The position numbers and the translations under genes are program-made. This document shows, one piece after another, positions 44,701 to 60,982 of a stretch of DNA of 64,000 nt. The notes under the pieces are model-generated. The model had not been told where the DNA came from. It searched no databases and saw only the letters and a list, made by a program, of their open reading frames with translations. Position 1 is the first letter of the stretch, and every line of letters begins with the position of its first letter. This stretch comes from an uncultured Porphyromonadaceae bacterium (GTDB lineage: Bacteria > Bacteroidota > Bacteroidia > Bacteroidales > Muribaculaceae). Location: NCBI GenBank assembly GCA_947573485.1, contig CANPGB010000006.1, positions 50,585-114,584 of the forward strand. Direction: 5' to 3'.

Positions 44701-45904
44701 CGTTGTTTTCGGCAAGGAGCAACTGCAGGGCTATGGCCGTAATGATAGCCTCAAGGCGCGATTTCTGCTCACGGCTCTCGGCCAGAGGCAGGGCATCAAT
44801 CTCGCGCCGGGCTTGACTCACGTAAATCTGGAACTGCTCAACGAAAGCGCTGCGGAAAGGCTCGCGTTTCCAGTTCTCAAGGTCACGCCCGAAGATACTC
44901 TCGAAGATGCGGTTGAGGTAGTTGCCCACTTTGTCGGGGTAGAGGCGGAAGATAATCATCAGCACGGCAAATTGCTCGGCGGGATGATAGAGGTAGCCCG
45001 ACTTCTGCAGTTTGTCGAGAAGGCTCTCCACGAAAGCATCCTGGCGGCTGTCGGATATCAGTTTGAGTGTCTGCAGATAAGGTTCGAGACTCTCCACCAT
45101 GGCCGTGAGTTGCTGGCGCAGGGCACGGCGGTGCTCGGCAGGCACGGCGTTGAGGAAGCCTGAGCCTTCGAGGAGGTAGAGCAGGGCGTCGCCGAAGGTT
45201 ACGATGAGGCTGCGCAACGCACGGCGCCTGCGGGTGTTGCGGGTACGCCCGAACCACTCGGGGAGGTTGCGCATCACCTCGCGGTGCAGGGTCATAATCC
45301 ACAGCGGACTCTTCATGCGCAGCTCGGTGCGCACCGCTTCCATTTCGCTCCAGCCGGTTAGCATACGTCTAACAAAAGCGCGTATCGCCCCCGGGGCTGA
45401 AATAGCCTCAAGGATGAAAGCAGGCTCATAAAACGGAATCTTGGCGCCTTCGTCGACGCGCGCCAACTGAAAGAAGCGCGGTGTCATGCGCGTGAATTTA
45501 CAGCGGATAATCTGACCTTTGGAGAGAAGCCCTTCGGGCTCGTTGAGACGGAAAAAAATGCCGTTGCCGTCGCGTACCATAAACGGGTCTTCGGCCGGTT
45601 TGGCAGGAACGCTCACCACCTCACATTCAAAGGTGTCTCCCCGCTCGAAAACTTTGGAATAAAGCTCGCTCACATATGGCGCTATCATATGGGTGAGCAC
45701 CGGCATCCCGTATTCATCAATACTTTTGACGCGACACAGCAGTTCGGCAGGCGCTATATAATTATCCCTTTTCTGAAAAGGAAGTTTGGGCAGCTCTACA
45801 AAACTCTTGCCCTCATCGGTATCAATCTCAAGTTTGAAACAATCGTCGGTCGCCGCTCCCGGCAGAACGGGAAACAGATAACTCTCGTCAATGATGTACT
45901 CCAT
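41783..45904 (-). CDS. 1373-aa multidomain protein with central AlbA_2/Schlafen-like nucleic-acid-binding domain and OB/S1-like modules
   Basis: The segment GSESKYLEFKTSIVYP...ILSRIAGLLNAGGGRLYLGVNNDGYEVG matches the AlbA_2 (divergent AAA_4) signature. No Walker A (GxxxxGK[ST]) anywhere. Repeated GD-x-[VFY] beta modules are present. Stop overlaps the GT2 start by 8 nt. Confidence 0.7.
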   Translation of the reverse strand: MEYIIDESYLFPVLPGAATDDCFKLEIDTDEGKSFVELPKLPFQKRDNYIAPAELLCRVKSIDEYGMPVLTHMIAPYVSELYSKVFERGDTFECEVVSVPAKPAEDPFMVRDGNGIFFRLNEPEGLLSKGQIIRCKFTRMTPRFFQLARVDEGAKIPFYEPAFILEAISAPGAIRAFVRRMLTGWSEMEAVRTELRMKSPLWIMTLHREVMRNLPEWFGRTRNTRRRRALRSLIVTFGDALLYLLEGSGFLNAVPAEHRRALRQQLTAMVESLEPYLQTLKLISDSRQDAFVESLLDKLQKSGYLYHPAEQFAVLMIIFRLYPDKVGNYLNRIFESIFGRDLENWKREPFRSAFVEQFQIYVSQARREIDALPLAESREQKSRLEAIITAIALQLLLAENNGVDNGDRHQTESLFYKYISILRPLNTEALLAKSFLALLGADVSSKLSYAQLREPMMMMTQATVLPAGDYMTKLKSSHRYTNNDVDITVSAEGIRLTNTRKRDVTERVVPEGLMPWLSPQIMINGVRGLSGPRLRKLSDHSQWWHDIEENLFEAAKPAAQAAVSETPQPIRRPEKGDEVYIVIDSVDDFFGNNPTFICHIEDVEFETGTGILKRDQIVGYNLKQPSDRAYLNSDGTQLGFLATVLDIRADGSYIFSLRNRVDEYIADSFNFGDTYTAIIAGVNERDYSAIGRNGIGLFIIRDEEVGADLKVGDIVTYRLEQTGKQGQIRAYATAVSTDPADRFDKGEAFTTLMRAIGEGSSEATDTRLIQEEELMRDIDEILTPGDVREIIDIIRFKAIAETDLIKAYDYLRFARILARVLGDEQLAGTLGTHASLLSLHQYYATNSRIDPEKLEALQSEALADPLLRLIYHRLEMVSWLDRPDRIPELYRTVNEPANELEGSIARLVLSYNMLHNTDSDAADFTNEIKQQIMHKLNVNNETRRGKYYGSESKYLEFKTSIVYPATAPGEEMREDPEAQQFHILSRIAGLLNAGGGRLYLGVNNDGYEVGMRDDFRYFERKPAMAGRYTFRIRNLDNLCVFLENLINETFGASVGRKIAVSVDDEAEKGVVLINVDESLDPVFIEGRLFVRQSGQSTREYHGQAVDDFVRERQELKAERTHLLAIAAQTREADDMALEDVREPQPASTPAVAEPEKPEHQEAEPEADIIATSQWRPNVCHSYETGFADPYGYLYFMGEDKLVFSTVDLYNEPGEGDCRLALVIPHDLNDGWLVLAYDNERAMRVPLNEIYAKGDNIALEYNTKYKLMFASIARKDDGLVCIGADSGGTLWKRANKIAAIEAAHLQSEPKRLHEAPIHHTVGFEIADSEVLDRFADCLADKLPSKRFGATLRVKEDAASMPAKIANLVNDCHNA

Positions 45905-46008: not shown

Positions 46009-48555
46009 TCAGCAGAGCAAGGCAATGCGGTAAACCGCAAAGGCTGCCAGCCAGGCCACAATAGTATTGTAAACCACGCTGAAGGCAGCATAGTGCCACG
46101 AGTGTGTCTCACGCGCGATAGCCGTGATAGTGGCCAGGCAGGGGCAGTAGAGCAGGACGAACACCAGGAAGCTCAGAGCTACCGCGGGAGTGAAATCGGG
46201 GCGCCCGGTGGCGGGGTCGGCAGCAGATATTCTTTCGCCGAGACGCTCGTCGGTGGTGGCCTCATCGTCGGTGTAGAGTACGCCGAGAGTCGATACAACA
46301 ATCTCTTTGGCAGGCACGCCTGCGAGAGCTGCCACCGATGCGCGCCACTCGAAGCCGAGAGGCTTGAGCAGAGGGTTGATAGCCTTGCCCATCATCTCGA
46401 GGTAGGAATCATGCTCGGGGTCGATTACCGATGTGTCGGTAATGTGCGAGTCAGCACCCTTGGCATCATGATTGGGGAAATAGTTGAGAGCCCATACCAC
46501 AATGCTGGCAAAGAGTATTATACCGCCCATTTTCTTCAGATACTCGCGCCCTTTGGCCCAGGTGTGGCGCACCGATGCCTTGAGGGTGGGGAGGCGGTAA
46601 GGCGGAAGTTCCATAACGAACGGAGTCTCGTCTTTATGGAAAAAGAAGCGGCGCAGCAGGCGCGCTGTAATCACGGCTATCAGTATGCCTCCGAAGTACA
46701 TGCAGGCGAGAACGAGTCCGGCGTGGGCGGCGAAGAAGGTACCGATAAGCAGCACGAAAACCGGCAGGCGTGCCGAGCACGACATGAAGGGGTTGATTAG
46801 TATGGTGATTATGCGGCTCGAACGGCTCTCGATGGCACGCGATGCAATAATGGCAGGCACGTTGCAGCCGAAGCCCATGACGAGAGGGATAAACGACTTG
46901 CCGTGAAGCCCTATGCGGTGCATTACCTTATCCATAATGAAGGCGGCGCGTGCCATATAACCCGAGTCCTCCATAAAAGATATACAGAAGTATAATATGA
47001 GGATGTTGGGCAGGAAAACTATGACACCTCCCACACCTCCTATTATGCCGTCGGTCACGAGGTCTTTGAGCGGTCCGTCGGGCATGAGTTCGTTGCAGGT
47101 GTCGCTAAGCCAGCTCACGCCGTTCTCTATCCACTCCATAGGATACTGGCCGACAACGAAAGTCGCCCAGAAAATAAAGAACATTATAACAAAGAAAATC
47201 GGGAAGCCGAGGAGCTTGTTCGTGGCGAGCGAATCAAGCACGCGTGTGGTGCGTCGCTCCTGCTTTTTACCTACGGTGAGGGTTTCGGCAAGTGCGCCGG
47301 CCACGAAACCGTATTTATGCGCGGCAACTATCGACGAAATCTCTTCGTTGCGCATGCCTTCGATGCGTCCGCGCAGCGTGTCGCGCAGAATTATGACTTC
47401 GCTGCCGGGGGTGCGGGGCACATGGCTGCGCCACGTTTCATGTTCGGGGGCTGCTGTCGGAGTCTCACAGCAGCTCTTGTGCAGAAAGTGCCGGCTGAAG
47501 AAATTGCGGCGCCGCTTAGGGCGCGCAGGCTTGGCTTCGCGGGCAGGGTTCTCGATGTTGCCTTGCTCTTCGCTGGCAGGCACCTCGTCTTCCATTTCAT
47601 GGTCGCCCTCAAGGAGTTTGATTGCCATATATCGGGGCGAGAAATGCTTGCTGGTGGCCGGACTGGCCTTGAGTTTATCAACTATCTGGCGCACAGCCTC
47701 CTCGATGTCGGCACCGAGGTTCACGTGTATGTGGCGCACAACATCGTCGTGCCCCTCATATACCGAAATCACCGTGTCGAAGAGGTCGTTGATACCCTCG
47801 CCGGTCTTGGAGACTACAGGTACCATAGGCACGCCAATCATTTTGCCGAGAGTGTCGTAGTCGAGCACATCGCCCTTGGCACGCAGTTCGTCGTACATGT
47901 TCAGGGCTATGACCATGCTTGTGTCCATGTCGATGAGCTCGGTGGTTAGATAGAGGTTGCGCTGCAGGTTCGACGAATCGACCACATTGATAATGACATC
48001 GGGGGTGTGCTCCCGCAGATACTGCCTTACGTAGAGCTCTTCGGGCGAGTAGCAGGTGAGCGAATACGTGCCAGGCAGGTCGACAATATTGAAGCGGTAG
48101 CCTTTGTACCGGAAATAACCGTCTTTGGCATCGACAGTCACGCCCGAATAATTGCCGACGTGCTCGCGCGCTCCCGAAGCGATATTGAAGAGCGACGTCT
48201 TGCCGCAGTTGGGGTTGCCAATGAGAGCTATGTTGATAGTATGTCGTTCGTGGTTGAAACGGCGGCGCTCCTCAGTGTTCTCAGGCAGGGAGGCTTCCGA
48301 TGCATGGGCTACCTCCGGAATAGATGCGGGGTCTACCTCAATGACCTCGATAAGCGACGCTTCTGACGCGCGTAGCGACACCTCATAACCTAATACGGAA
48401 TATTTTATAGGGTCGCGCAAAGGAGCATGGAGCACGACAGTAACGGTGTGCCCTTTGACAAAACCCATTTCAAGTAGACGCTTGCGGAATGCGCCGTGGC
48501 CATGTACCTTGACAACAATGCCCGACTGGCCTGTGTGAAGCTCCGATAGTTTCAT
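46009..48555 (-). CDS. feoB: ferrous iron transporter, FeoA-FeoB fusion
   Basis: N-terminal FeoA SH3-like domain (LSELHTGQSGIVVKVHG...GFVKGHTVTV), G domain (GNPNCGKTSLFN, DLPGTYS, NMYD) and a polytopic gate domain. Fusion is typical of Bacteroidales. Start set at MKLSEL (48555). Confidence 0.9.
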   Translation of the reverse strand: MKLSELHTGQSGIVVKVHGHGAFRKRLLEMGFVKGHTVTVVLHAPLRDPIKYSVLGYEVSLRASEASLIEVIEVDPASIPEVAHASEASLPENTEERRRFNHERHTINIALIGNPNCGKTSLFNIASGAREHVGNYSGVTVDAKDGYFRYKGYRFNIVDLPGTYSLTCYSPEELYVRQYLREHTPDVIINVVDSSNLQRNLYLTTELIDMDTSMVIALNMYDELRAKGDVLDYDTLGKMIGVPMVPVVSKTGEGINDLFDTVISVYEGHDDVVRHIHVNLGADIEEAVRQIVDKLKASPATSKHFSPRYMAIKLLEGDHEMEDEVPASEEQGNIENPAREAKPARPKRRRNFFSRHFLHKSCCETPTAAPEHETWRSHVPRTPGSEVIILRDTLRGRIEGMRNEEISSIVAAHKYGFVAGALAETLTVGKKQERRTTRVLDSLATNKLLGFPIFFVIMFFIFWATFVVGQYPMEWIENGVSWLSDTCNELMPDGPLKDLVTDGIIGGVGGVIVFLPNILILYFCISFMEDSGYMARAAFIMDKVMHRIGLHGKSFIPLVMGFGCNVPAIIASRAIESRSSRIITILINPFMSCSARLPVFVLLIGTFFAAHAGLVLACMYFGGILIAVITARLLRRFFFHKDETPFVMELPPYRLPTLKASVRHTWAKGREYLKKMGGIILFASIVVWALNYFPNHDAKGADSHITDTSVIDPEHDSYLEMMGKAINPLLKPLGFEWRASVAALAGVPAKEIVVSTLGVLYTDDEATTDERLGERISAADPATGRPDFTPAVALSFLVFVLLYCPCLATITAIARETHSWHYAAFSVVYNTIVAWLAAFAVYRIALLC

Positions 48556-48607
48556 TGGCTGTATTTTAGGCTGCAAAGTTCGCAATTTCTTGCGGTACGA
48601 CCAAATA

Positions 48608-48857: not shown

Positions 48858-49946
48858 TTATTCGTAGGTTGTGCTTACATCGACATAAGTGTCAACGGTA
48901 GGATTACCGAACTCGATGGCTCCCATTTCCTCGTTGGAGTTGATAACGAGGTTATACACATAGTGGTAGCCGGGATGCCACTCCGAGAACGAACTTGTTG
49001 AGAGCGGGAATTTGAGAAGACCGTCGCCGAAGGTACTGCCTTCAACGATATTCTCAGCGGGAGTATTGGCGTTAGGCCACAGCTTGTCGCCGGTCTTGGC
49101 ATCGTACACCGAGCACATCACGGTGATATACATATCGTTGCCACTGCCGTTGCTGCGGTATGTGAGCTGCTGGGGCAGTGTATATTTGGCTCCGCCAAGG
49201 CCGAGACCAGTAGAGCCCATATCGGTGGCTGTGGTAGTCAGGGTTATAAGGTCGTTGGCATCCTGCGACATGTGGTAGATATATGGCACGGGGGTATTTT
49301 GGTCGGTCCAGGTACCTATATTGCTTGCAGTTGGGCTGCCGGAAGTCGATTCGGTGGGGAAGTGGAAGTTGCCTTTGGTCATGATATTGGCCATTGCCAC
49401 GTTCGATACCTTCACCTGGAGGTCGGCGTTTGAAGAGCTCATCTTGATAGTCACCTTTGAGAGTGCGTGTCTGAAATTGAACACAACCTGGGCGTTGGCC
49501 ATGCCGGTGTTGCCACGGAGGTCGGGGCTCACGGCATAGATTATATCTTCTGTGCCGGGATATGCGTCATAGGCCACCGGCTGCAGAGGGGTAGCCGTTC
49601 CGAGCCATTTGGACGGAGCGAAAGCGTAGAAGTCCACAGCCTGGCTTGCAGGCCAGTATTTCACAGGCGAGTACGTCCATGTGTTTGTGCCGGTCTTGGT
49701 AACCTCCACATTATCCATGAAGAGGACAGGGGCTTCGTCGGTGCCGGTGTAGGCGTACACGTTGAAGGAGCGCAGAGTGTTGGTTGTTATATCGCCTGCA
49801 CGTGAGTACTCGGTGTTGGCGGCAAAGCGTATGGTGTTGTCGTCGATAGTCGAGCCCGGGGTATCTTCTTCGGTATCGGTACATGAGAAGAGCGGAAGAC
49901 CGCCAAGGGTGGCGACCGCAATTGCGAGTAATTGGATTTTGCTCAT
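48858..49946 (-). CDS. fimbrillin family lipoprotein (Mfa/FimA-like stalk subunit)
   Basis: Lipobox LPLFSC, then ...IRFAANTEYSRAGDITTNTLRSFNVYAYTG..., typical of Bacteroidales type V pilins. Third gene after DUF3575 and DUF5119. Confidence 0.7.
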   Translation of the reverse strand: MSKIQLLAIAVATLGGLPLFSCTDTEEDTPGSTIDDNTIRFAANTEYSRAGDITTNTLRSFNVYAYTGTDEAPVLFMDNVEVTKTGTNTWTYSPVKYWPASQAVDFYAFAPSKWLGTATPLQPVAYDAYPGTEDIIYAVSPDLRGNTGMANAQVVFNFRHALSKVTIKMSSSNADLQVKVSNVAMANIMTKGNFHFPTESTSGSPTASNIGTWTDQNTPVPYIYHMSQDANDLITLTTTATDMGSTGLGLGGAKYTLPQQLTYRSNGSGNDMYITVMCSVYDAKTGDKLWPNANTPAENIVEGSTFGDGLLKFPLSTSSFSEWHPGYHYVYNLVINSNEEMGAIEFGNPTVDTYVDVSTTYE

Positions 49947-49965
49947 TGTCTATACTTGTTTTTGA

Positions 49966-50904
49966 TTAAAAATTAATATTCTCATCATAGTTGATCTCTA
50001 TCACCTGCCAGCCGTCGACATCCACATTTATGCCGACATCTTCGTCGGAAGGAGGCACCGTCCCTGAGGGTATCGAGAGGCTGTCAATATAAATTGTAAC
50101 GTTGTGGCTATAGCGAGAGTTTATCACCTGGCCGGTGACATCGAAAGTTTTGGAAAAACGTTCGCCGTCGGAGCGCGTGACAATCAGCGCAAGCTCAAAA
50201 TCGGGCTCCGAAGTGGACCCAAGTCCCGATGTGGTGCCTCTGAGACCGCCTTGGCCGGTAAGGGAGAGCGATGTCTGTGTGGCACACATATCAGCGCCGG
50301 CCTTGCAATCTCCGAGATACAGTTCCGAAGCCATGCCCGACAGACGGGCCGTGGCCGACCGCATCCGCTCCAGGCCGTCAACCCGCCCCACAATTATATT
50401 ATATATTGTAGCGGCGCTGTCGGGATAGCAGCGCACCAGCTCGTAGGGGCACTCTTTAATTGTGCCGTCGGGCTGCCGGTAACGCACTCCGCAGAGCGTC
50501 TGTTCAATTTCTCCAACCACAGCGCGGTACAACATCCCTGTGGGGAATACCGTCGAACCATTGGATTTAGGTTGCGCCGCGAGTGTGGCAAAAGCATCCT
50601 GTCCGCTGTACACAGTGCCCGGCAAATCGTTGTTTACCGACACCAGGGCATAGCGGCCGAGCGGCAGCTCCACCTCTCCGCCCTCAGCTCCTGCAATATC
50701 GTAGCGCCATACCTTGCCACCGCTCTGGAGAGGGTAGAAGTACAGAGTCATGCCGGCAGGAGAGGCTTGCGGCGCCTTATCCCAAATAAAAGTAACGGTG
50801 AGAGGGTAGGGCTCGGTGCCGGGGCACATGATATCCTTGTGTGTGCACGAGAGCATGCACACCATTAGAATCAGCACTGCAATGTATGCCCACAGAGACC
50901 TCAT
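49966..50904 (-). CDS. DUF5119-like fimbrial accessory lipoprotein
   Basis: Start set at MRSLWAYIAVLILMVCMLSC (lipobox). This position and size match the second gene of Mfa-like loci. ATGA overlap with the upstream gene. Confidence 0.55.
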   Translation of the reverse strand: MRSLWAYIAVLILMVCMLSCTHKDIMCPGTEPYPLTVTFIWDKAPQASPAGMTLYFYPLQSGGKVWRYDIAGAEGGEVELPLGRYALVSVNNDLPGTVYSGQDAFATLAAQPKSNGSTVFPTGMLYRAVVGEIEQTLCGVRYRQPDGTIKECPYELVRCYPDSAATIYNIIVGRVDGLERMRSATARLSGMASELYLGDCKAGADMCATQTSLSLTGQGGLRGTTSGLGSTSEPDFELALIVTRSDGERFSKTFDVTGQVINSRYSHNVTIYIDSLSIPSGTVPPSDEDVGINVDVDGWQVIEINYDENINF

Positions 50905-51548
50905 AATGTGCGCAGGGGACTGTTGTGCCGCCCCGAGCCCGGGAACCACACGAGTGAAACTTCTATAGCGGTAGGACCAACGTACCGGTGTGCCACACGA
51001 CCGGTGCAGACATAGGTGCCGCATTGCGGTTCATACTCCACCATTTTGCCTGCGACATAGCCGAGCCTCAACCCGAAGTCGAGATTGAGACGCTCGTTCA
51101 GAGGGAGTGAATAACCATAGGCTATACCAAGCCCGTAGACAGGCTTTACCGATTGCCACCCCTTGCCACCAAGCTCAAAATCAAAAGAATGGACTGAAAA
51201 ATAAACGCCTGCATGATGCCCTGCCATGGCGCGCAGGCCGTGTTTGTTCCCGAACCACCAACGCAACTCGCCGGAGCCACCGTATATGCGCCAGAAGCGG
51301 TTGCGGCTGCTCTTGCTCCACCAGGCCCATAACCCCTGCCCGACAACCGAGAAACGCTGGCCAATGCCAAGTTCGAGGCCAAGGTCGGGCGTAAGAGCCG
51401 CATCATGCAGAAGATTCGTGCGTACGGCAAGCACCGGACGGCAGTCATCACAACTCTCGCACTCCTGCCCGTTAGCGGCAAGGGCGCAAAACAAAAGTAG
51501 TGCTACCGCTGCAATGTGTATTAGTGATGAATATGCCGATTTAATCAT
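50901..51548 (-). CDS. DUF3575-like outer-membrane beta-barrel protein (first gene of type V pilus locus)
   Basis: Signal peptide, then ...LAVRTNLLHDAALTPDLGLELGIG... and a Gly/Tyr-rich strand pattern characteristic of DUF3575. Confidence 0.65.
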   Translation of the reverse strand: MIKSAYSSLIHIAAVALLLFCALAANGQECESCDDCRPVLAVRTNLLHDAALTPDLGLELGIGQRFSVVGQGLWAWWSKSSRNRFWRIYGGSGELRWWFGNKHGLRAMAGHHAGVYFSVHSFDFELGGKGWQSVKPVYGLGIAYGYSLPLNERLNLDFGLRLGYVAGKMVEYEPQCGTYVCTGRVAHRYVGPTAIEVSLVWFPGSGRHNSPLRTL

Positions 51549-51551
51549 GTA

Positions 51552-51583
51552 GTGCGGGTAATATGCCTTTATAACACCCGCAC
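51552..51583 (-). other. hairpin immediately upstream of the fimbrial operon start
   Basis: 8-bp stem GTGCGGGT / ACCCGCAC, 16-nt loop, no T-run. Lies between the DKNYY-gene stop (51616) and the DUF3575 ATG (51548). Confidence 0.3.
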
Positions 51584-51615
51584 AACGGCGCTTGTTCTAC
51601 GCTCGCACTTCCAGG

Positions 51616-52288
51616 CTATTTATTTGCCCCATATTTCGACTTAAGATATTCTTGAAGCGCAGGAGAATCCTTACCGGAATAAATGCGGTTACGGTCGAAA
51701 ACGGTCCACCCGGCGGGGTGAGGAAATTCTACTATTTCAAAAGATTCCACATCAGCCCCTTCTATCAAAGAGTCTCTCCAAAAGACATTTTTTGAATCTT
51801 TGCCAAAGGTGCGGCTTAATGATCTATTGTTAGGCGTAATTTCAGAGATGGGGCGGAACGATCTTACGTCCACGCCTTTAAGCGGTCGGGTATAATTCCA
51901 TACATGCTCCTTGTCTTTGCACCAGATAGAAGAGATTACTTCAAAAGAATGCACATCGGCGCCGGGTAAAATATTCAAAAGCATGTCATAAATATTTTTG
52001 CCGTCTGAATACCAGTACATATCTATTTTTGTAAGGTCTGCGAACCGTTTTATTTGGGTCGCTTTCGCTTCATAATATACCCTGTCCTTATCTTCGCCTA
52101 TGAAATAGTCCATTTCTTTGAATGTGGCAGGGTCGGCGCCCGCAACTATCGAATCTTCAAAATATACATGATTTTTATCTATTGCATATCTGTCGCCCGT
52201 TATTGGTATAACCTAATACGCAGCCGGTCAACAACAGGCTTAGCAAAAAACAAATTATAACGGTGCAGGACGAGGTTTTTTTACTCAT
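51616..52288 (-). pseudogene. DKNYY-repeat lipoprotein gene interrupted by a 1-nt frameshift
   Basis: A 37-codon ORF (52288-52175) encodes the lipoprotein signal MSKKTSSCTVIICFLLSLLLTGC...GYTNNG. The main frame (open from 52212) continues ...GDRYAIDKNHVYFEDSIVAGADPATFKEMDYFIGEDKDRVYY. The two frames join if one C of CCC 52196-52198 is removed. Confidence 0.7.
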
Positions 52289-52323: not shown

Positions 52324-52444
52324 GGCATTTTTACCGGAACGGTGATACCTTTTATGTTTATATTTACTCAAATCCTTTCAGGAGTGCGCCTGATTCCCTC
52401 ACCACTATTAGTGATTTTACTTAATTATATTAAAGAAAGGACGA

Positions 52445-52456
52445 GCGAGGCCTCGC
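52445..52456. promoter_or_regulatory. 12-bp perfect palindrome GCGAGGCCTCGC upstream of the TBDR promoter
   Basis: Self-complementary 12-mer ending 18 nt upstream of the -7 box, in the -33 region. Confidence 0.35.
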
Positions 52457-52470
52457 CGAACGTGAAATAA

Positions 52471-52484
52471 TTAGTAATTTTGCA
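52471..52484 (+). promoter_or_regulatory. consensus promoter 14-mer TTAGTAATTTTGCA for the TBDR cluster
   Basis: Contains TAATTTTG (52475-52482). Exact copy of the ftsY and trpS promoter 14-mers. The next in-frame start (GTG 52507) is 25 nt downstream. Confidence 0.6.
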
Positions 52485-52506
52485 TGTTAAACCTGTCAGA
52501 CAACAA

Positions 52507-55274
52507 GTGAACCGACATATTCTTACATCTATAATCTTGCTTGCCGGTGTCATAAGGCTTGATGCGGCAAAGGTGAGCGGCACTGTTCTCGACGCTTCCG
52601 ACAAAAGCCCGCTGCCGGCTTGCGCCATTGCCATTCTTCCGGGGCAGAGGAGCGTGCAGACCGATATCGACGGCAAATTTGTGCTCGATATTCCTGCAGG
52701 TGCTTACACCTTGAAGGCTTCGTATGTGGGTTTTGACGACTACACCGCCGGGCTAAAAGTGGGAGCACGTGACACCTCGATAGTGATAGAGCTCAAGCCC
52801 GCAGCAACCAGCTCGCCGAAGTGACGGTTACAGCCAGGGAGTCGACCGGCATTACTACCGCCTCCCGTATCGGCAAAGACGCCATGGCGCATCTCCAGCC
52901 TTCAAGTTTCACCGACCTCCTCGAACTTCTCCCGGGCAATATCAGCCAGAATCCCCAAATGGGGTCGGTGAACTCCATAAAGCTCCGCGAAACGGGCAAT
53001 ATCGGCGCGACAGGCAATACTGCCGACAACGCTGACTATGCGATAAGCGCCCTCGGCACGGCCTTCAACGTCGACGGCGTGCCCCTCAACAACGACGCCA
53101 ACCTGCAGAGTGTGGGTATAGAGGCGGCCACCGGGCGAAATTCCGTGAACCGCGGTGTAGATATGCGCTCGCTTGCAACCGATAATATCGAGAGTGTTGA
53201 GATTGTGCGAGGCATACCCTCGGCAGAGTATGGCAACATGACCTCCGGCCTCGTGAACATCAGACGCACAAGGCGTGCCACGCCCTGGACGGCGCGTTTC
53301 AAAGCCGACGGATACAGCAAATTGCTCTATGCGGGAAAAGGTATAGCCCTCGGCCCCGACGGCCGCAACACCCTCAACGCTGACATCGGCTGGCTCGACA
53401 GCAAGACCGATCCACGCAACAAACTCGAGAACTTCAAGCGCATTACAGCCTCGCTGCGCGCCGCGCTGACGTGGAGCTCTCCCGTATTGCTCACCGACTG
53501 GAACCTCTCGGCCGACTATACAGGCACCGCCGACCGCTCGAAGACAGACCCCGACCTATCTCTTAACAAACTCGACGAATACCGCTCCGATAATCATCGC
53601 GGAGCCTTTGCCACCGATCTTTCGCTTTCGTTCCGCTCGCTTAAATGGTTGTCGAGGATTGATATAAAAGCATCGGCCTCGTATGAGTCGGACCGTCTCC
53701 GCCGTCTGCGCCAGGTGGCACCGTCGCGTGCGGCTATCGCTCCCATATCCAACAGCGAAGGTGTGCACGACGGCGTCTTCATACTCGAAGAGTACATTGC
53801 CGACTATCTCAGCGAGGGAAAGCCTCTGAGCCTCTTCGCGAAACTCGGTCTCAACGGCAACTTGCCCGTATGGAGTCAAGCCACACATGCCTGGAAAGCG
53901 GGGGCAGAGTGGAATCATAGCAAGAATTACGGCCGCGGCCAGGTTTACGACCCGATGAAACCGCTATCGGCGTCGTGGACATCGCGCCCGCGCGACTACC
54001 GCAGCATCCCGGCGCTTAACCTTGTTTCGGCGTATCTTGAAGATGCCCTTACGGCGCCATCTCCGGCAGGCACGCTCGAACTGCAGGCAGGCGTCCATGC
54101 GGTGACGATAGCCGGTCTTGACCGCCGTTATGCCATTTCGGGCAAACCCTACCTCGACCCCCGAATAAATGCCGTATGGCGTTTCCCGGCTTTTTATACC
54201 GGAGGCCGGAGCACCGAACTTCTCCTTGCGGGCGGTTACGGTCTGAGCACACGTATGCCTACAGTCGACTATCTTTTTCCGCAGGAGGCTTATCTCGACA
54301 TACTCCAACTTAATTACTACGACACCTCTGACCCGCGCAACAACAGTCGTGTTAACATGCGCACCTATATCAACGACGCCACAAACTACGATCTCAAACC
54401 GGCCCGCAACCGCAAATGGGAGGTGCGAGTCGGAGCTTCGGTGGGTGCCAACCGCTTGTCGGTGACCTATTTCGAGGAGCATATGAACTCCGGCTTCCGC
54501 TATTCAAATATCTACGGAGCATATAAATACACCCTTTACGACCCCTCGGGAATAAAGCCCGGAGAGCTGGCGGGGCCGCCCCAGCTCCAGGATCTGCCCT
54601 CAAGCGAGCAATCGGTGCTCCGAGGCTACCGCCGTGCCGAGAACGGCTCAACGATAGATAAACGCGGCGTGGAGTTTCAGCTCAATACCGCCCGATGGCG
54701 CCCGCTCGCCACTTCGCTCATAATATCTGGTGCATGGTTCCGCTCGCGTTACAGCAACTCGCAGCGCATCTTCGACCCCGTTAGCGATGTTGTCGACGGC
54801 ACCTCGGTGAGCGACCGCTTTGTAGGGCTCTACAACACCGACGACGGTCGTGTGAGCGAGCAGTTCAACACCAATTTCATGTTCGACACACAGATACCCA
54901 AACTCGGCCTTGTGTTCACTACCACGCTCCAGTGCATGTGGTACGTTAAGACCCGACGTCTGGCTCAGAACGGCGTGCCCGACGCCTACGTATCGGCTGT
55001 CGACGGACTCCTGCACGACTTCGACAACGGCAATGCCGACCCTCTGCTGAAATATCTTATACAATATTACAACCCCGACCTTTTCAACAACTACACCATA
55101 CCCACGGCCCTGTACGTCAACCTCAAGGCTACCAAGAGCATAGGCAAATGGCTAAGGGTAGCTGTGTTCGTCAACCGCATAATCGACTATCTGCCCGATT
55201 ACAAATCAAATGGCCTGACGGTACGCCGCTCTTCCGACGCATACTTCGGCATGGAACTCAACTTCACTCTCTGA
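52507..55274 (+). pseudogene. TonB-dependent receptor with N-terminal CarboxypepD_reg domain, split by a 1-nt frameshift
   Basis: ORF 52480-52824 encodes a signal peptide plus a carboxypeptidase-regulatory-like fold (VSGTVLDASDKSPLPACAIAILP...TDIDGKFVLDIPAGAYTLKASYVGF). ORF 52821-55274 encodes the plug (NIESVEIVRGIPSAEYG) and barrel. The ORF2 frame is open from 52773. The frames join as ...IELKPAAT-QLAEVTVTARE if one base is added at CC 52808-52809. Confidence 0.75.
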
Positions 55275-55278
55275 CCTC

Positions 55279-56562
55279 ATGATAAACAAGAATATATTAT
55301 TCCCCGTACTCGCCCTCGGTGTCTTTGGTGCCTGCTCCGACAACGCCTGCGACCCCGTTCCCGCCAAAGCCGGCGTTCATATCTCGGTCCCCGCAGATAT
55401 CGACATCTCCGGGCTCCGCGACGGCTCACTTACATTTTATAATATAAGTTCGGGCGAGAGTCTCTCCACGCCATGTGGCGCGGGCCTCTCTGTCGAGACC
55501 ATGGTGCAGCCGGGTGTATACAATATCTCATACTCGGCGACTGTAACCCTTGCCAACGGTGTGGAAGCCGCGCTGCGCGGACAAATCGCAGGAGTACAGA
55601 TTACCCCCGGCGGGGCAAGCACAACGCTCAGCACTTTTGCCGCCGTCGACACCGACGACCTCATCATCTCGGAACTCTTCTTCACCGGCACACTGCAGAC
55701 CTCCGGCAATCAATACAACGGCGACCAGTATATCAAATTATACAATAATACCGGCCATACCGTGTATGCCGACGGACTCACGATATTTGAATCGCAGTTC
55801 CTCACTACCCAGAAGTTCAACTATACGCCCGACCTCATTGCAAGCGACGTAAGTGTCGATGCCTTGTACACAATTCCGGGCAGTGGCACCGATTATCCCG
55901 TGGAGCCCGGCGAGGAACTCCTCATAGCCGATATTGCCATAGACCACCGAGAGATCAACCGCAATTCTTTCGACCTCAGTCATGCCGACTTCGAGTGGTA
56001 CGACCAAAGCTCGACTCCGGCTTACACCGATATCGACAATCCTGCGGTGGAGAATCTCGACAAATGGTATTGCTACACGCTCTCGATATGGCAGCTGCAC
56101 AACCGAGGCCTCAAAGCCTACGGTATCGCCCGCATCCCTGTGGATAAAGACGAGTATCTGAGCGGCTACCGTTATACCGTGGAGTACGACCAAACAACGG
56201 CCGCAGGCACTTTCCCGATGTCAAAGACCTGTTACCGCCTGCCCAACGAGTGGGTGGTGGATATTGTGAACTGCTCGGTGGAGTCGGAGTATCTCTGGAA
56301 CGTGTGCACACCTGCACTCGACATGGGCTGGACCCACTGCGGAACGGTTGACGGCGATAAAAACCGCTATTTCCATGCCGTGCGCCGCAAGGTGCTGACA
56401 CTCGGTGCCGACGGGCACCCGCTGCTCTCCGACACAAACAACTCCTCGCAGGACTTCAACTCTTTCGTAACACCTTCTGAAATTGAACGTCAGGGCACTG
56501 CTGCCGGAATCGACGGGAAGCCCGCATCCACGCAGACTTACGACGGTGTAATGCCTAAATGA
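55279..56562 (+). CDS. surface lipoprotein with lamin-tail-like (LTD) segment, DUF4876-like
   Basis: Lipobox LALGVFGAC. DDLIISELFFTG...GDQYIKLYNNTGHTVYADGLTIFES resembles the LTD signature. Starts 4 nt after the TBDR stop. Confidence 0.6.
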   Translation: MINKNILFPVLALGVFGACSDNACDPVPAKAGVHISVPADIDISGLRDGSLTFYNISSGESLSTPCGAGLSVETMVQPGVYNISYSATVTLANGVEAALRGQIAGVQITPGGASTTLSTFAAVDTDDLIISELFFTGTLQTSGNQYNGDQYIKLYNNTGHTVYADGLTIFESQFLTTQKFNYTPDLIASDVSVDALYTIPGSGTDYPVEPGEELLIADIAIDHREINRNSFDLSHADFEWYDQSSTPAYTDIDNPAVENLDKWYCYTLSIWQLHNRGLKAYGIARIPVDKDEYLSGYRYTVEYDQTTAAGTFPMSKTCYRLPNEWVVDIVNCSVESEYLWNVCTPALDMGWTHCGTVDGDKNRYFHAVRRKVLTLGADGHPLLSDTNNSSQDFNSFVTPSEIERQGTAAGIDGKPASTQTYDGVMPK

Positions 56563-58052
56563 AACGACTCGCTTTTATCATGACTGCGGCCGCAATGGTC
56601 GCTCAGGCCAAGGCCGAAATCGCTCCTGCCCTTATCGCCTGCGACACTCTTGCCAATTCTACCGCAAGTGTCACCCTGCGTCTTCCGGCGCTCTCGCCGT
56701 GGTTGCAGGGGGCTTCGCTATCGGCGATTTCTGCAGGCTATGCCGATGAATCGTTCGACAAGGCTCCGCAAAGCGCCTTCGGAAAAGGCGCGCGTAAAGG
56801 CTTTTTTGATGCCGAGACTTACCTCAAGACTTCCCGCGCGACTATCACGGGGCATGCGTCATATACCAATGGCAAGCGCCGAGGGATAGAGGGCTGTGAG
56901 GTGAGTGACCCCGCTCTGATTTACCCGTATCTAACCGCCGACACCATAGGTGGCGACATGAACACGGAGTGCTACCGCTTCGGAGGCAGTTATGCCTCTT
57001 CGTTCGGCGGGGGCAAGTGGATATACGGCGCAGAGCTGCATTACCGGGCTCTTCAGGAATACCGACAGCGCGACCCTCGCCCCAAAAACACGGTAGGGCA
57101 ACTTGATTTCGCCCTCTCATTCGGACGTAAGTTGGACGACTATTTTGTAGTGGTCGGGGGAGATGCCTATAAGTATTCGCAGTCGGGCTCAATCTCTTTT
57201 GTAAGCGATCTCGGAGCGGTGAAGGTTCACCATCTCACGGGCCTCGGCACGCAGTATAACCGTTTTGCAGGCTCTAACCGTGAAGTGAATTTCTCGGGGT
57301 GGCGCCGGGGTGTGACGCTGGCCATATGGCCTTCTACGGTAGGTGCCTTCGCTTCAGTAGGTTATCATTGCCTTACCTTGGGCAAGGTGCTCAAGTCACT
57401 CAACAATCTGCCGTCGAACCGCGTGGTCGACAACCAAGTTGAGGCTGAGGCCGGTTGGCGCGCAGGCGCATGGTCGGTATCTGCATCGGCCGACTACAAT
57501 CATCGCAGCGGAATCGACAATATTTTCGGCGACCCGGCCGGGAACGTCTATCCCGAGCTTTTCTCTCTGGCAAATTATAAGGCGAGCCACATAAGCGCAT
57601 CGGCAAAAGGAGCCTGGCGACATATGTTTGCCACCGGGCGCCTGACCCTGGCCGGTTCTCTCTCATACGTAGGACATAAGGAAACGTACACCGGAAGCGC
57701 AGCGGTGCGGCAGGCTCGTCTGACGTGGTTGCGGCCGGGTATCTCGGCGTCTTATGCAGGTAATCTCGGCAGGAAATTCATACTTGAAGCTTCGGCTGAT
57801 GCCCGGGCCTCTTTCGTACCCGATTCCTCGCTCGATGGGATTGGCGCAGACGCCGACTACTTCGGCCGCCTTTACATGCGCGATTTCGATATTGCCGCAG
57901 GCCGCAGTGTAGATGCCGCCCTGGCAGCTTCGCTTCTCTATGTGCTCAAGGGAGACTATGCTTTAGGGCTTAGGCTCAGCTATCGTCACACAGCCATGTC
58001 GCAGGCAATCCATGGCAATGCTTTCGGCGCGGCTCTTACGTTTAAATTCTGA
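56559..58052 (+). CDS. outer-membrane beta-barrel protein (DUF6850-like)
   Basis: Signal peptide MKRLAFIMTAAAMVAQAKA, Gly/Tyr/Ser-rich alternating strands and a C-terminal ...GAALTFKF OMP signature. ATGA overlap with the upstream gene. Confidence 0.6.
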   Translation: MKRLAFIMTAAAMVAQAKAEIAPALIACDTLANSTASVTLRLPALSPWLQGASLSAISAGYADESFDKAPQSAFGKGARKGFFDAETYLKTSRATITGHASYTNGKRRGIEGCEVSDPALIYPYLTADTIGGDMNTECYRFGGSYASSFGGGKWIYGAELHYRALQEYRQRDPRPKNTVGQLDFALSFGRKLDDYFVVVGGDAYKYSQSGSISFVSDLGAVKVHHLTGLGTQYNRFAGSNREVNFSGWRRGVTLAIWPSTVGAFASVGYHCLTLGKVLKSLNNLPSNRVVDNQVEAEAGWRAGAWSVSASADYNHRSGIDNIFGDPAGNVYPELFSLANYKASHISASAKGAWRHMFATGRLTLAGSLSYVGHKETYTGSAAVRQARLTWLRPGISASYAGNLGRKFILEASADARASFVPDSSLDGIGADADYFGRLYMRDFDIAAGRSVDAALAASLLYVLKGDYALGLRLSYRHTAMSQAIHGNAFGAALTFKF

Positions 58053-58076
58053 ATTTAATATCTGTAAAATAATAAT

Positions 58077-60887
58077 TTGATGAATTACGGTAAATACCTC
58101 TTACTGCTTGTCGCAGCCTCATTCTGCGGCAGTGCGCCGGCGGCAACTATCGACCCCGCGGTGCGCACAGGCAAGCTCGAGAACGGCTTGACCTACTATC
58201 TCATGCAAAACGATAAGCCGGGCGGCACAGCCGATTTCTTCCTCGCTCAGAAAGTAGGCTCGGTCAATGAGGAGGAAAACCAGCGCGGTCTGGCACATTT
58301 TCTCGAGCATATGTGTTTCAACGGCACCGAGCATTTCCCCGGCAATTCGCTCATCGGCTACCTCGAGAGCATCGGTGTGAAATTCGGCGCTCATCTCAAT
58401 GCCTACACCTCAACCGACGAAACCGTCTACAACATTTGCAAGGTGCCCACGGCACGCGAGAGCGCCGTGGATTCGTGCCTGCTTATACTGCGCGACTGGT
58501 GTTGCGCCATCTCGCTCAATCCGGCCGACATCGACAGTGAGAGAGGTGTGATTGTCAATGAATGGAGGCAGCGCAACTCGGCTTCGAACCGCATGCTCGA
58601 GAAAGCTTTCCCGCGCCTTTACCCTGATAACGCTTATGGCGAGCGTCTGCCCATAGGACTGATGAGTGTTGTGGAGAATTTCAAACCGGCCACGCTCCGC
58701 AAGTTCTATAACAAGTGGTATATCCCGGCCAACCAGGCAGTGGTTGTTGTGGGTGACATCGACCTTGACCGCACTGAGCAGGTTATTAAGGGTATGTTCA
58801 GCGAAATGCCCGCAGCACGCGATAAAACTTCAAGTATCGCCGAACTGCCGGAGGTTGAGCTTTCCGACAGTCTGCTCTGTGTGGTGGAGAGCGACCCCGA
58901 GCAGGGTGCCGAGATGATGCAGCTGTATTTCCGCCTCCCTCCCGTGCCCGATAATCTTGCCGATGAAGCTCGCCGTAAGGCCGTCTCCGATATGGCTGCC
59001 GACATTCTTGCAACGCGCTTTGAAGAACTTGAGGCTTCGGCCGACTGCCCTCATACATCTCTCGGCGTCGGCGAGGTAAAATATCTTATGAGCAGGGGAG
59101 AGCAGGCCCTCACTTTCCGAGGCGCTCTCAAGCCGGGCAAGGCCGAAGAGGCTCTGGCGGCATGGTACGGCGAGCTGCGCCGAGCCATTGAGCACGGTTT
59201 CCAGCCTGAGGAGGTTGATAAGGCCCGCACCTCGCTTGAGGCTTCTCTGGCAGAGAAAGCCAAGCACCAGGAAAGCCCGGCCAACACCTACCTGGCACGC
59301 CTGTGTGTGCGTCACTTCCTCGACGGTGGCGAAAAGATAGATTACAACGCCTATCTCGATATGATACGCAAGGCTGCTGCCGAGGTGCGGTCGGAAGATA
59401 TTGTCAACTATCTGCTTGAAGCTGCCGGAAGCGCTCCCAAAGGCGCCGTGGTGCTCCTTTACCGCCCGGCAAAGGACTCGGATAAAGAGCTTGAATCGCA
59501 TTTACGCGAGGTCTTTGCCGAAGTGTCCGGCAAGTCGTTCGAACCTTATAAACCGGCAGTGTATGCCGATGAGCTTATGACGGCCTTGCCTGCCACGGGC
59601 TCGATAGTCGCTGTCGATTCAACCGCAGCCTTCGGCGCACGCAGATATACCCTTTCCAACGGCATCAAAGTCATCGCCCTGCATACCGATTACAAACCCG
59701 GGCAGGTGTATGTGCGCGCTTACAGTCCCGGCGGTCTGGCAGCCTCCTATAATGAGGCTGATGTGCCCACTCTCAGGGTTCTCAACGAGCTCATGGCCGA
59801 GATGAAGTACGGCGGACACTCGGCTTCCGACATCCGTCACATACTCACCGGAGCTTCGGTAAAGGCATCGGTCAACATCTCCACCAACGAGGAGAGCCTC
59901 GAGGCGGCAACGACATCCGATGACCTCGCGAAGGCTTTCCAGCTTCTTTATCTGCGTGCCACTTCGGCTCAGCCCGATAGTGTTGCCTTCGCCAACTTCA
60001 TGGCCACGCAGCACAATACTGCCGCCACGCGCAAGGTAAACCCCGTGCAGGCTATGGGCGATTCAATCCATTTCACCATATACAACCGTCACCCACTTGC
60101 CGGACGGCAGCAGCTTGCCGACATCGATAAGGTGAACCTCGATACGGCCATGAAGATGTATGCCGACCGCTTTGCCGACATGGGCGATTTTACCTTTATG
60201 GTAGTCGGCGATTATAATGAAGCCGAACTCGAGAATTATCTCTGCCAATATGTGGCAACCCTTCCTGCCGCAGGGCGTGTGGATAAAGTGGAGGAAATAG
60301 GCTACGTCTACACTCCTTATGATTTCGATATCCGCTTTACCCGCAAAATGGAGAATCCCCAGGCTATAGTCTACAGCTTCATCAGCGGCCCGGCAGAGTA
60401 TACTCTCGACGACCTCCTGTGCGCCACCGCTTTCGGGCAGCTGCTGCGCACAAGCCTCCTCGCCGACCTCCGCGAGAGCCGCGGCTGGACCTACTCCATA
60501 CGCACCCACTGCGCCATAAATCCCGGGGTGAGTCCTGCAACGGGAGCGCAGGTTATGATGCCCACTTACATCAAGGTCACCCCCGGCAAAGAACATGAGG
60601 TGCTCGATATTGTGCTGGCAACTATCGAAGGTATGACCGAGCCCGGAGCCATAGCCGACGAAGAGGTAGGCGGCCTCAAGGAGTTCCTTATAAAGAATCA
60701 CGCCGAAGCTGTACGCGACAATGCCTACTGGCTTAAAGTCATCAAGGCACTCGAGCGCGACGGTCTCGACCTTGAGACAGGCTACGACGAGGCCGTAAGC
60801 CGTCTGTCGGCCCAATCTATCGCCGACTTTGCCAAGCGTGTTATTCTGCCCGCTCACAAGGCTTCAATTGTCATGAGCGCCGAGTAA
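58077..60887 (+). CDS. secreted two-unit M16 family zinc protease (PqqL/FusC-sized, 936 aa)
   Basis: Signal peptide MMNYGKYLLLLVAASFCGSAPA, HFLEH zinc motif followed by ...LNAYTSTDETVY, and a second inactive M16 repeat in the C-terminal half. Confidence 0.8.
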   Translation: MMNYGKYLLLLVAASFCGSAPAATIDPAVRTGKLENGLTYYLMQNDKPGGTADFFLAQKVGSVNEEENQRGLAHFLEHMCFNGTEHFPGNSLIGYLESIGVKFGAHLNAYTSTDETVYNICKVPTARESAVDSCLLILRDWCCAISLNPADIDSERGVIVNEWRQRNSASNRMLEKAFPRLYPDNAYGERLPIGLMSVVENFKPATLRKFYNKWYIPANQAVVVVGDIDLDRTEQVIKGMFSEMPAARDKTSSIAELPEVELSDSLLCVVESDPEQGAEMMQLYFRLPPVPDNLADEARRKAVSDMAADILATRFEELEASADCPHTSLGVGEVKYLMSRGEQALTFRGALKPGKAEEALAAWYGELRRAIEHGFQPEEVDKARTSLEASLAEKAKHQESPANTYLARLCVRHFLDGGEKIDYNAYLDMIRKAAAEVRSEDIVNYLLEAAGSAPKGAVVLLYRPAKDSDKELESHLREVFAEVSGKSFEPYKPAVYADELMTALPATGSIVAVDSTAAFGARRYTLSNGIKVIALHTDYKPGQVYVRAYSPGGLAASYNEADVPTLRVLNELMAEMKYGGHSASDIRHILTGASVKASVNISTNEESLEAATTSDDLAKAFQLLYLRATSAQPDSVAFANFMATQHNTAATRKVNPVQAMGDSIHFTIYNRHPLAGRQQLADIDKVNLDTAMKMYADRFADMGDFTFMVVGDYNEAELENYLCQYVATLPAAGRVDKVEEIGYVYTPYDFDIRFTRKMENPQAIVYSFISGPAEYTLDDLLCATAFGQLLRTSLLADLRESRGWTYSIRTHCAINPGVSPATGAQVMMPTYIKVTPGKEHEVLDIVLATIEGMTEPGAIADEEVGGLKEFLIKNHAEAVRDNAYWLKVIKALERDGLDLETGYDEAVSRLSAQSIADFAKRVILPAHKASIVMSAE

Positions 60888-60910
60888 GCAGCATAGCGAT
60901 ATACTTCACG

Positions 60911-60950
60911 GGAGCCGTCACTGCACAGTAGGGCAGGGCGGCTCCTTTTT
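60911..60950 (+). terminator. rho-independent terminator after the M16 protease gene
   Basis: 7-bp stem GGAGCCG / CGGCTCC (60911-60917, 60939-60945), followed by TTTTT. Confidence 0.55.
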
Positions 60951-60974
60951 CATTGCCGGATAATGGTAATTTTG

Positions 60975-60982
60975 TAATTTTG
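60975..60982 (+). promoter_or_regulatory. -7 promoter box (TAATTTTG) for the DUF3667-like gene
   Basis: TAnnTTTG, 22 nt upstream of the ATG at 61004, in context TTGTAATTTTGCAGCC. Confidence 0.55.

Follow-up and report, generated by a model that had tools for sequence, protein, structure and literature searches.

What is imported, and how, by a cluster in which a TonB-dependent receptor and a large M16 protease are encoded together with two proteins of unknown function? Such a cluster was located on the plus strand, at 52480-60887, of a 64,000-nucleotide (nt) stretch of DNA from an uncultured Muribaculaceae bacterium, which is called the window here and to which positions refer unless another locus is named. 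It encodes in order the receptor (gene 1), a DUF4876 lipoprotein (gene 2), a DUF6850 beta-barrel (gene 3) and an M16 zinc protease of the PqqL/FusC class (gene 4). A first interpretation made from the letters of the DNA, below called the sequence-only reading, had taken it for a four-component, protease-associated import system. In the present analysis the transporter, DUF4876, DUF6850 and the PqqL-class protease occurred together as a conserved unit in ~117 of the 140 loci that could be evaluated. The preferred explanation, to which we give about even weight, is that the cluster is a protease-associated TonB-dependent import system for peptide- or small-protein-borne cargo, probably linked to iron or haem. 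In the window copy the receptor gene carries a frameshift, and for this reason the copy is probably non-functional.

Conservation and layout of the cluster

Related loci, designated by L numbers, were collected in two ways, and their gene content was judged by tblastn with the four window proteins. The genome scan was centred on DUF6850 (one genome per species, an 11-sequence alignment), and the best 80 of 209 relatives were kept. [quoted passage not shown] Six loci were too short to judge, and the ten without M16 despite enough flank came from Rikenella, Millionella, Coprobacter and a few metagenome-assembled genomes (MAGs). The second, independent scan, made on metagenome contigs, gave M16 in 53 of 66 evaluable loci, the DUF4857 module in three and nothing in ten (14 were too short), with receptor and DUF4876 upstream wherever the flank permitted. 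In separate cluster look-ups the M16 relatives P0094, P0138 and P0182 (43-46% identity) were all placed within the same four-gene arrangement, the cluster of the DUF6850 relative P0044 likewise had M16 in that arrangement, and the receptors of these four clusters were intact, with 876-930 amino acids (aa). Co-occurrence in a fixed order, which the sequence-only reading had named as one of its checks, was thus decisively borne out in both collections. Judged from these loci, the cluster is a conserved Bacteroidales unit, mainly of Muribaculaceae, in mouse- and human-gut genomes.

The constant part is a three-gene core of receptor, DUF4876 and DUF6850, and what follows it was one of at least three alternatives: M16, a set with ATP-binding cassette (ABC), DUF4857 and PepSY genes, or nothing. 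The alternative module was observed in L083, L089, L156, L170 and L172. Its genes are those of an ABC ATPase, of a membrane protein and of DUF4857, joined in some cases by a small lipoprotein and a PepSY_TM-like protein; it overlaps in content (ABC ATPase, DUF4857, PepSY-TM) with the rest of the BT3625-33 locus of B. thetaiotaomicron.

Two further arrangements were seen among the relatives. In a Muribaculaceae MAG (L038, 1991-2398), which is among the ten genome loci counted as without M16, just the first ~40 and the last ~100 M16 residues were left after DUF6850, which looks like an internal deletion and would be a second example of natural decay of the operon. In L090 and L091 (1271-4645) the operon directly follows co-directional genes of the OPT family (oligopeptide or metal-chelate) and of a MatE transporter, possibly an inner-membrane uptake/export pair of the same pathway.

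The elements of the window copy, with the evidence for each, are the following.

52396-52417, plus: degenerate operator remnant (column-for-column alignment with the L005 and L006 operators)
52475-52482, plus: Bacteroidetes-type -7 promoter box TAATTTTG, 24 nt before the GTG start of the receptor gene (sequence)
52507-52824, plus: receptor fragment A, 105 aa, signal peptide and CarboxypepD_reg-like N-terminal domain (open reading frames, Pfam)
52790-52800, plus: approximate site of a 1-nt deletion causing a frameshift (three-frame translation, DNA alignment with intact orthologues)
52803-55274, plus: receptor fragment B, TonB box, Plug (E 6e-10) and barrel of ~670 aa
55279-56562, plus: gene 2, predicted DUF4876 surface lipoprotein of the BT1938 family, 427 aa (Pfam DUF4876, E 3e-69)
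56559-58052, plus: gene 3, DUF6850 outer-membrane beta-barrel, 497 aa, Sec signal peptide, C-terminal ...ALTFKF (Pfam, E 2e-75)
58077-60887, plus: gene 4, PqqL/FusC-class M16 zinc protease, 935-936 aa, Sec signal peptide for signal peptidase I (Pfam Peptidase_M16 and M16_C)
60910-60951, plus: intrinsic terminator, G+C-rich hairpin followed by a U5 tract (sequence, RNA folding)

The open reading frame (ORF) analysis agreed with the layout given before: four co-directional genes, with 4 nt between the first two, an overlap of 4 nt between the next two and 24 nt before the last, a distance which becomes 27 nt if gene 4 begins at ATG 58080, which is its likelier start. A single promoter and a single terminator bracketing the genes had also been proposed, and both were recovered, by a TAnnTTTG search, phylogenetic footprinting and RNA folding instead of the two standard scanners. 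TAATTTTG was the sole intergenic TAnnTTTG upstream of the four genes. A box equal to this consensus, or at most one base off, stood at the equivalent place in nearly all of 57 related loci, L007 being the only locus without it. No match at this site was returned by the sigma-70 promoter scanner, because its promoter type differs from that of Bacteroidota. The terminator hairpin (60910-60946) belongs to the 14-bp class, with a folding free energy of -27.5 kcal/mol and a z score of -2.84; the simple terminator scanner did not report 60910-60951, because the loop is longer than this scanner permits.

The protein components and the interrupted receptor gene

The domain assignments of the sequence-only reading, including DUF4876, DUF6850, CarboxypepD_reg and M16/M16_C, were all reproduced by Pfam. 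For gene 4 the signal peptide and HFLEH had been noted, and the protein carries the motifs H74FLEH and E155RGVIVNE. HxxEH and ExxxxxxE were present in 120 of the 120 M16 homologues listed. The N-termini of the homologues are Sec signal peptides with AxA cleavage sites and no conserved lipobox Cys; because of such signal peptides without a conserved cysteine, the N-terminus of gene 4 fits a soluble enzyme that would reside in the periplasm. A C-terminal domain of the type IX secretion system (T9SS) was not detected in gene 4 by Pfam.

Among solved structures, the closest to gene 4 was 9ldy ('Peptidase, M16 family', 916 aa; E 1.5e-164), aligned full length over residues 24-933, followed by PqqL (6ofs, E 1.9e-67) and FusC (6b03/6brs/6b05, E ~1e-33). 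The proposed kinship with PqqL and FusC, in the long single-chain class, was thereby upheld. 9ldy reached 553 bits, well under the 827 or more of the cluster-associated M16 relatives, and by this score it may be a paralogue from outside the operon. No paper on 9LDY was found in the literature.

Gene 2 is the 427-aa lipoprotein that had been recognised before. In the window its lipobox Cys19 is followed by SDN (CSDN), and in 41 homologues this Cys did not vary and preceded D/S-D(-D), as is typical of surface-export signals in Bacteroidota. The sequence of the protein matched BT_1938 (PDB 4q1z) with E 2e-16, and its fold did so with E 2e-18. The lamin-tail-like segment also claimed for gene 2 did not hold up. 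The match to the lamin-tail domain (LTD, Pfam PF00932, E 0.08-0.12) reached 13.7 bits against a cut-off of 34.3 and spanned just the first ~40 profile positions, and no lamin-tail structure appeared in the top 50 Foldseek matches of the gene 2 model, whose predicted local distance difference test (pLDDT) score was only 65.

Gene 3 had been described as a 497-aa second beta-barrel ending in ALTFKF, in accordance with its AlphaFold2 model (pLDDT 94, predicted template modelling (TM) score 0.88), a barrel of ~18 long strands with short N-terminal helices. The fold matches were generic barrels only (Foldseek, TM 0.3-0.43), and no similarity of DUF6850 to Slam/DUF560 was found by sequence or by fold. 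The exact 497-aa sequence was absent from database records, where a 490-aa version is on record. DUF6850 was mentioned in no paper of the searchable literature.

The TonB-receptor assignment of gene 1 stood, with CarbopepD_reg_2/CarboxypepD_reg and Plug domains and no SusD-family partner among the cluster proteins by Pfam, but the single intact ORF that had been assumed did not: gene 1 consists of two ORFs in different frames, of 105 aa and 817 aa. Fragment A begins at a GTG (52507) that is kept in L005 and L006, and ends at a premature stop at 52824 (tail ...ELKPAATSSPK*). In the DNA alignment the window has a single-base gap at ~52790-52800 relative to the intact L005, L006, L007 and L013, directly 5' of the TonB-box-like LAEVTVTA. 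The frame of the plug and barrel resumes at ~52803 (NQLAEVTVTARE...), while the mechanical ORF of 817 aa begins at GTG 52821; fragment B is without a signal peptide of its own. The intact receptors of L005 and L006 (920-930 aa) are 82-83% identical to the window receptor, and receptors of relatives align to residues 1/16-922 of the repaired window sequence as a single tblastn segment. Genes 2-4 are full length compared with their homologues.

The same split into 105 aa and 817 aa was common to four independent ENA assemblies, whose identity with the window across 8.9 kb is 99.99-100%. The DUF6850 protein lies, 100% identical, on nine public contigs; the four listed come each from a different ENA analysis. 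The deletion would therefore be a property of the strain and not of one assembly, and an assembly error is unlikely as the cause of the split, since four separate assemblies carry it. A programmed frameshift or slippage at the junction was rejected, because AAGCCCGCAGCAACCAGCTCG contains neither a slippery heptamer nor a homopolymer and the ORFs of relatives are uninterrupted. An intact allele of this strain was sought in metagenomes of the Joint Genome Institute with anchors flanking the frameshift; the search gave 0 matches and was uninformative. The simplest and most likely reading of the sequence is a null allele, by which the receptor would not be made.

As for its family, the receptor scored 65.8 bits on the SusC/RagA model TIGR04056, against a cut-off of 368.25, and so stays outside SusC/RagA. 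Its barrel was not recognised by any Pfam model; for this reason the receptor assignment rests on the Plug, the N-terminal domain, the size and the homologues. When the repaired 922-aa receptor was compared by phmmer with all PDB sequences, FusA and YddB included, no FusA or YddB match was obtained at E <= 1, and just two weak matches to isolated N-terminal domains appeared (E 0.034 and 0.17).

Upstream control region and neighbouring genes

When 57 upstream regions were aligned on the -7 box, a 22-nt palindrome, AAATACCyAAAwTTrGGTATTk, was exposed in 46 of them (for example L022 305-326, L035 5643-5664 and L085 2292-2313, within loci L007-L088). It overlaps the -33 position, with its end 21-22 nt upstream of the -7 box, and is often doubled in divergent intergenic regions. 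In 1.5 Mb of locus sequence the weight matrix of this operator gave 229 matches of at least 12 bits; shuffled sequence gave 19.

Pairs of operator and promoter preceded the receptor (63 cases), a protein of ~600 aa (26) and a lipoprotein of ~200 aa (6). The gene of the ~600-aa protein adjoins the receptor gene in at least 40 of the 80 genome loci, usually in divergent orientation, and is co-directional and immediately upstream of it in the nearest relatives (L005-L008, L013). Examples with the operator upstream are the following.

L085, 369-2180, minus: ~600-aa gene
L086, 412-2193, minus: ~600-aa gene
L005, 4016-5722, plus: ~600-aa gene
L007, 4139-5953, plus: ~600-aa gene

The ~600-aa protein belongs to no Pfam family and gave a sub-threshold match to the T9SS type A sorting domain (E 0.0024). 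It probably represents a fifth component, which would be secreted. The ~200-aa lipoprotein, with the same operator upstream, carries a conserved CxHxCxH motif (...VEGICTHICSHGG...). In Coprobacter its gene (L083, 13907-14512, plus) heads the PepSY_TM-like/ABC/DUF4857 operon, and in L030, L052, L073, L074 and L075 it is found 1.7-3.4 kb upstream of the receptor, on the minus strand.

In the window the operator is left as a remnant: the right arm GTGATTT is kept, and in the left arm ATACC has changed to TCACC. Its matrix score is 4.7-7.1 bits, compared with 17-20 for L005 and L006 and a median of 23 for the other loci. Elsewhere in the window, including the feoAB promoter, no operator above chance was found, and the ~600-aa gene has no homologue in the 64 kb. 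The degenerate operator and the missing gene fit an operon which, to judge by its sequence, is probably inactive or was recently inactivated in this strain.

A G+C-rich palindrome, GGCGAGGCCTCGCC (52440-52457), separates the operator remnant from the -7 box; it has no counterpart in L005 and L006 and on the minus strand reads like the hairpin of a terminator. Because it intervenes, the remnant is ~57 nt from the -7 box. A Mfa-like fimbrial set (DUF3575, DUF5119, Mfa_like_1) with a DKNYY-family gene (48858-52113, minus) sits where the closest relatives have the co-regulated ~600-aa gene. Beyond this fimbrial operon, ~4 kb upstream of the cluster, is the gene of a fused FeoA-FeoB ferrous-iron transporter (46009-48585, minus). 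Directly 3' of the terminator two overlapping -7 boxes, TAATTTTGTAATTTTG (60967-60982, plus), were observed, probably the promoter of the downstream gene of a DUF3667 membrane protein (ATG at ~61004). A 1373-aa ORF (41783-45904, minus) had a weak Schlafen/AlbA_2 match (E 5e-4) as its sole Pfam hit. Overall, the window is ordinary chromosome with 54.6% G+C, carrying ParC-like, LigA, RpoN, GcpE, TamB and GH77 genes.

Mechanism, alternatives and relation to known systems

Published work on related proteins gives a hint of how the components could cooperate. The DUF4876 proteins BT1938 and BT3632 have been proposed as lids of non-SusC transporters; the proximity of DUF4876 to a transporter is conserved in 81 and 59 genera, the predicted lids leave an unusually wide opening of ~20 A, and a B. 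fragilis DUF4876 homologue is surface-exposed (bioRxiv 10.1101/2023.03.17.533168). PG1019-22 (20.8- to 214.5-fold) and BT3625-33 (38- to 128-fold) are among the genes most strongly induced in iron depletion, and BT1933-39 rises 3.5-7.4-fold (PMC10434189). PG1019 and PG1020 also rise in haem-starved P. gingivalis, and PG1019-22 was still called an uncharacterised transport system in 2026 (PMC13096392). Both PqqL and FusC are processing proteases of the periplasm, are regulated by iron and are encoded beside a TonB-dependent transporter; for PqqL, induction by iron limitation, activity and a clam-shell that opens and closes were shown (PMC6793856).

In the explanation preferred here, the parts would be a non-SusC transporter, DUF4876 as its partly open lid, the ~18-strand DUF6850 barrel and a Sec-exported M16 protease with a complete catalytic site. 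In relatives with an intact receptor, the lipoprotein and the transporter would capture at the cell surface a cargo borne by a peptide or small protein, probably linked to iron or haem, and TonB energy would drive it to the periplasm. There the clam-shell M16 would cleave the cargo and free its useful part, while the DUF6850 barrel would serve as an obligate outer-membrane partner. By analogy with the measured homologues, control would probably be of the iron type at the level of the family.

Several points weigh against this explanation. We infer from the gene set and its analogues that the proteins form a complex, what kind of substrate they take up, that iron controls them and that cleavage takes place in the periplasm. 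About 15-20% of related clusters are without M16, and the protease is therefore dispensable for the core; in the species with a PepSY/ABC module, the likelier cargo by that module would be a small chelate and not a protein. No relation of the receptor to FusA or YddB could be detected, and for DUF6850 neither its sequence nor a 59-member profile matched a solved structure or another Pfam family, so that no relative points to its role. The operator is unlike the classical Fur box, and the promoter in the window is accompanied by a degenerate operator only. As for the broken copy, the four assemblies with the split represent one strain and possibly one study.

Import of peptides or proteins as nutrients, unrelated to iron, would be an unlikely but still credible alternative. 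The system would then supply amino acids, as RagAB does in P. gingivalis, and the M16 enzyme would trim the cargo for uptake through the inner membrane. It agrees with this that enzymes of the PqqL/FusC class cleave peptides and small proteins, that the operon of L090 and L091 directly follows OPT-family and MatE transporter genes, and that the operator is not of the Fur-box kind. However, of the DUF4876-receptor operons homologous to this one, those measured respond to limitation of iron or haem, the PepSY_TM-like protein of the alternative fourth module belongs to a family which includes siderophore reductases, and the receptor stays outside the SusC/RagA family of peptide importers. Import of a small molecule (a metallophore or haem) by the core, with M16 not as the processor of the cargo but as an accessory, which would break down a carrier peptide or act in the maturation or turnover of the system's own envelope components, seems improbable to us. 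The loci with a core and no M16, and those in which the core is joined to a PepSY/ABC/DUF4857 module typical of chelate handling, speak for it, and non-SusC transporters with lids may take smaller substrates (bioRxiv 10.1101/2023.03.17.533168). Yet the sampled M16 relatives sit in this very cluster, the catalytic site is conserved in every homologue listed, and the predicted opening of the DUF4876 lid is unusually wide.

The place of the DUF6850 barrel can also be seen otherwise, in a way which would fit any cargo. In Neisseria, Slam barrels are encoded beside receptor-lipoprotein pairs, and DUF6850 might in a Slam-like manner serve the DUF4876 lipoprotein alone, as its translocon or assembly factor, and be no transport channel. 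Its gene always comes directly after that of DUF4876, and the stop codon of the one often overlaps the start codon of the other; the protein itself is a simple barrel that lacks a plug domain, and none of the solved transporters was found to be related to it. We nevertheless consider this role rather doubtful, given that no Slam/DUF560 likeness was detected and that no such barrel is listed in the description of BT3631-33, a DUF4876-receptor locus in which the lipoprotein apparently reaches the surface without DUF6850. That four unrelated envelope genes lie together by chance has a negligible probability and is effectively refuted by the synteny counts, with the same order and strand in ~117 loci from two independent collections; the gaps of 4, -4 and 24 nt, the single conserved promoter and operator upstream and the one terminator downstream oppose it as well.

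A more far-reaching form of the preferred protease-associated import would be a Bacteroidota-specific, operator-controlled iron-piracy machine which arose independently of Fus; this is a speculative extension and unlikely to be right in full. The ~600-aa T9SS-tailed protein and the DUF4876 lid would capture an iron- or haem-bearing protein, for which diet, host or neighbouring microbes are conceivable, if equally speculative, sources. A two-barrel complex of transporter and DUF6850 would import it, and M16 would dismantle it in the periplasm, while lineages living on small chelates would have swapped M16 for PepSY/ABC/DUF4857.

Muribaculaceae are dominant in the mouse gut and common in the human gut, and their acquisition of nutrients and iron is almost unstudied. 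If the preferred protease-associated import is true, such import extends from Proteobacteria to Bacteroidota through a non-homologous receptor. A testable context is in any case provided for two domains of unknown function, DUF4876 and DUF6850, and these are linked to the strongly iron-induced, uncharacterised loci PG1019-22 and BT3625-33 and to the related BT1938-39. The window locus, as a natural receptor-null allele, would probably be useful as a comparison strain and not as a working example.

The architecture had been supposed to be uncharacterised. This is correct for the four-gene set, of which no description was found in the searchable literature, where also no paper couples an M16/insulinase protease with a TonB receptor in Bacteroidota; the receptor-DUF4876 lid pair, however, had already been described.

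The cluster resembles SusC/SusD (RagA/RagB) in its TonB-dependent barrel with a CarboxypepD_reg-like extension and a surface lipoprotein, and is set apart from them by the score of its receptor (65.8 against 368 bits) and the lack of a SusD-family partner. The resemblance is closer to the pairs BT1939/BT1938, BT3633/BT3632 and PG1020/PG1019, in which a non-SusC transporter adjoins a DUF4876 lipoprotein gene on the same strand, and gene 2 is ~20% identical to BT_1938. The published lid descriptions cover the pair only, without DUF6850 or an M16 protease (bioRxiv 10.1101/2023.03.17.533168), and BT3625-33 has PepSY/ABC/DUF4857 genes where this cluster has M16.

With FusA/FusC and YddB/PqqL the cluster shares a TonB-dependent transporter in an operon with a single-chain M16 protease of ~930 aa, with four M16 domains and a signal peptide; iron-linked regulation, as in Fus and PqqL, would be likely here by analogy. 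Protease-associated import systems were defined from FusA homologues in a survey of Proteobacteria only, in which Bacteroidota appear solely as the SusC outgroup (PMC6793856), whereas the phylum here is Bacteroidota. Unlike FusA and YddB, to which it is non-homologous, the receptor has a CarboxypepD_reg N-terminal domain, and two extra obligatory outer-membrane partners are present, the DUF4876 lipoprotein and the DUF6850 barrel. Neither a TonB paralogue nor an ABC exporter like those of Fus belongs to the cluster, and the window copy differs further by its frameshifted receptor. The idea of a Bacteroidota elaboration of the Fus logic thus keeps the PqqL/FusC-class protease and its conserved linkage and loses the kinship of the receptor with FusA and YddB. 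Since this homology is absent, the system would be Fus/YddB-PqqL-like in its working, by analogy, and not a family member by the receptor.

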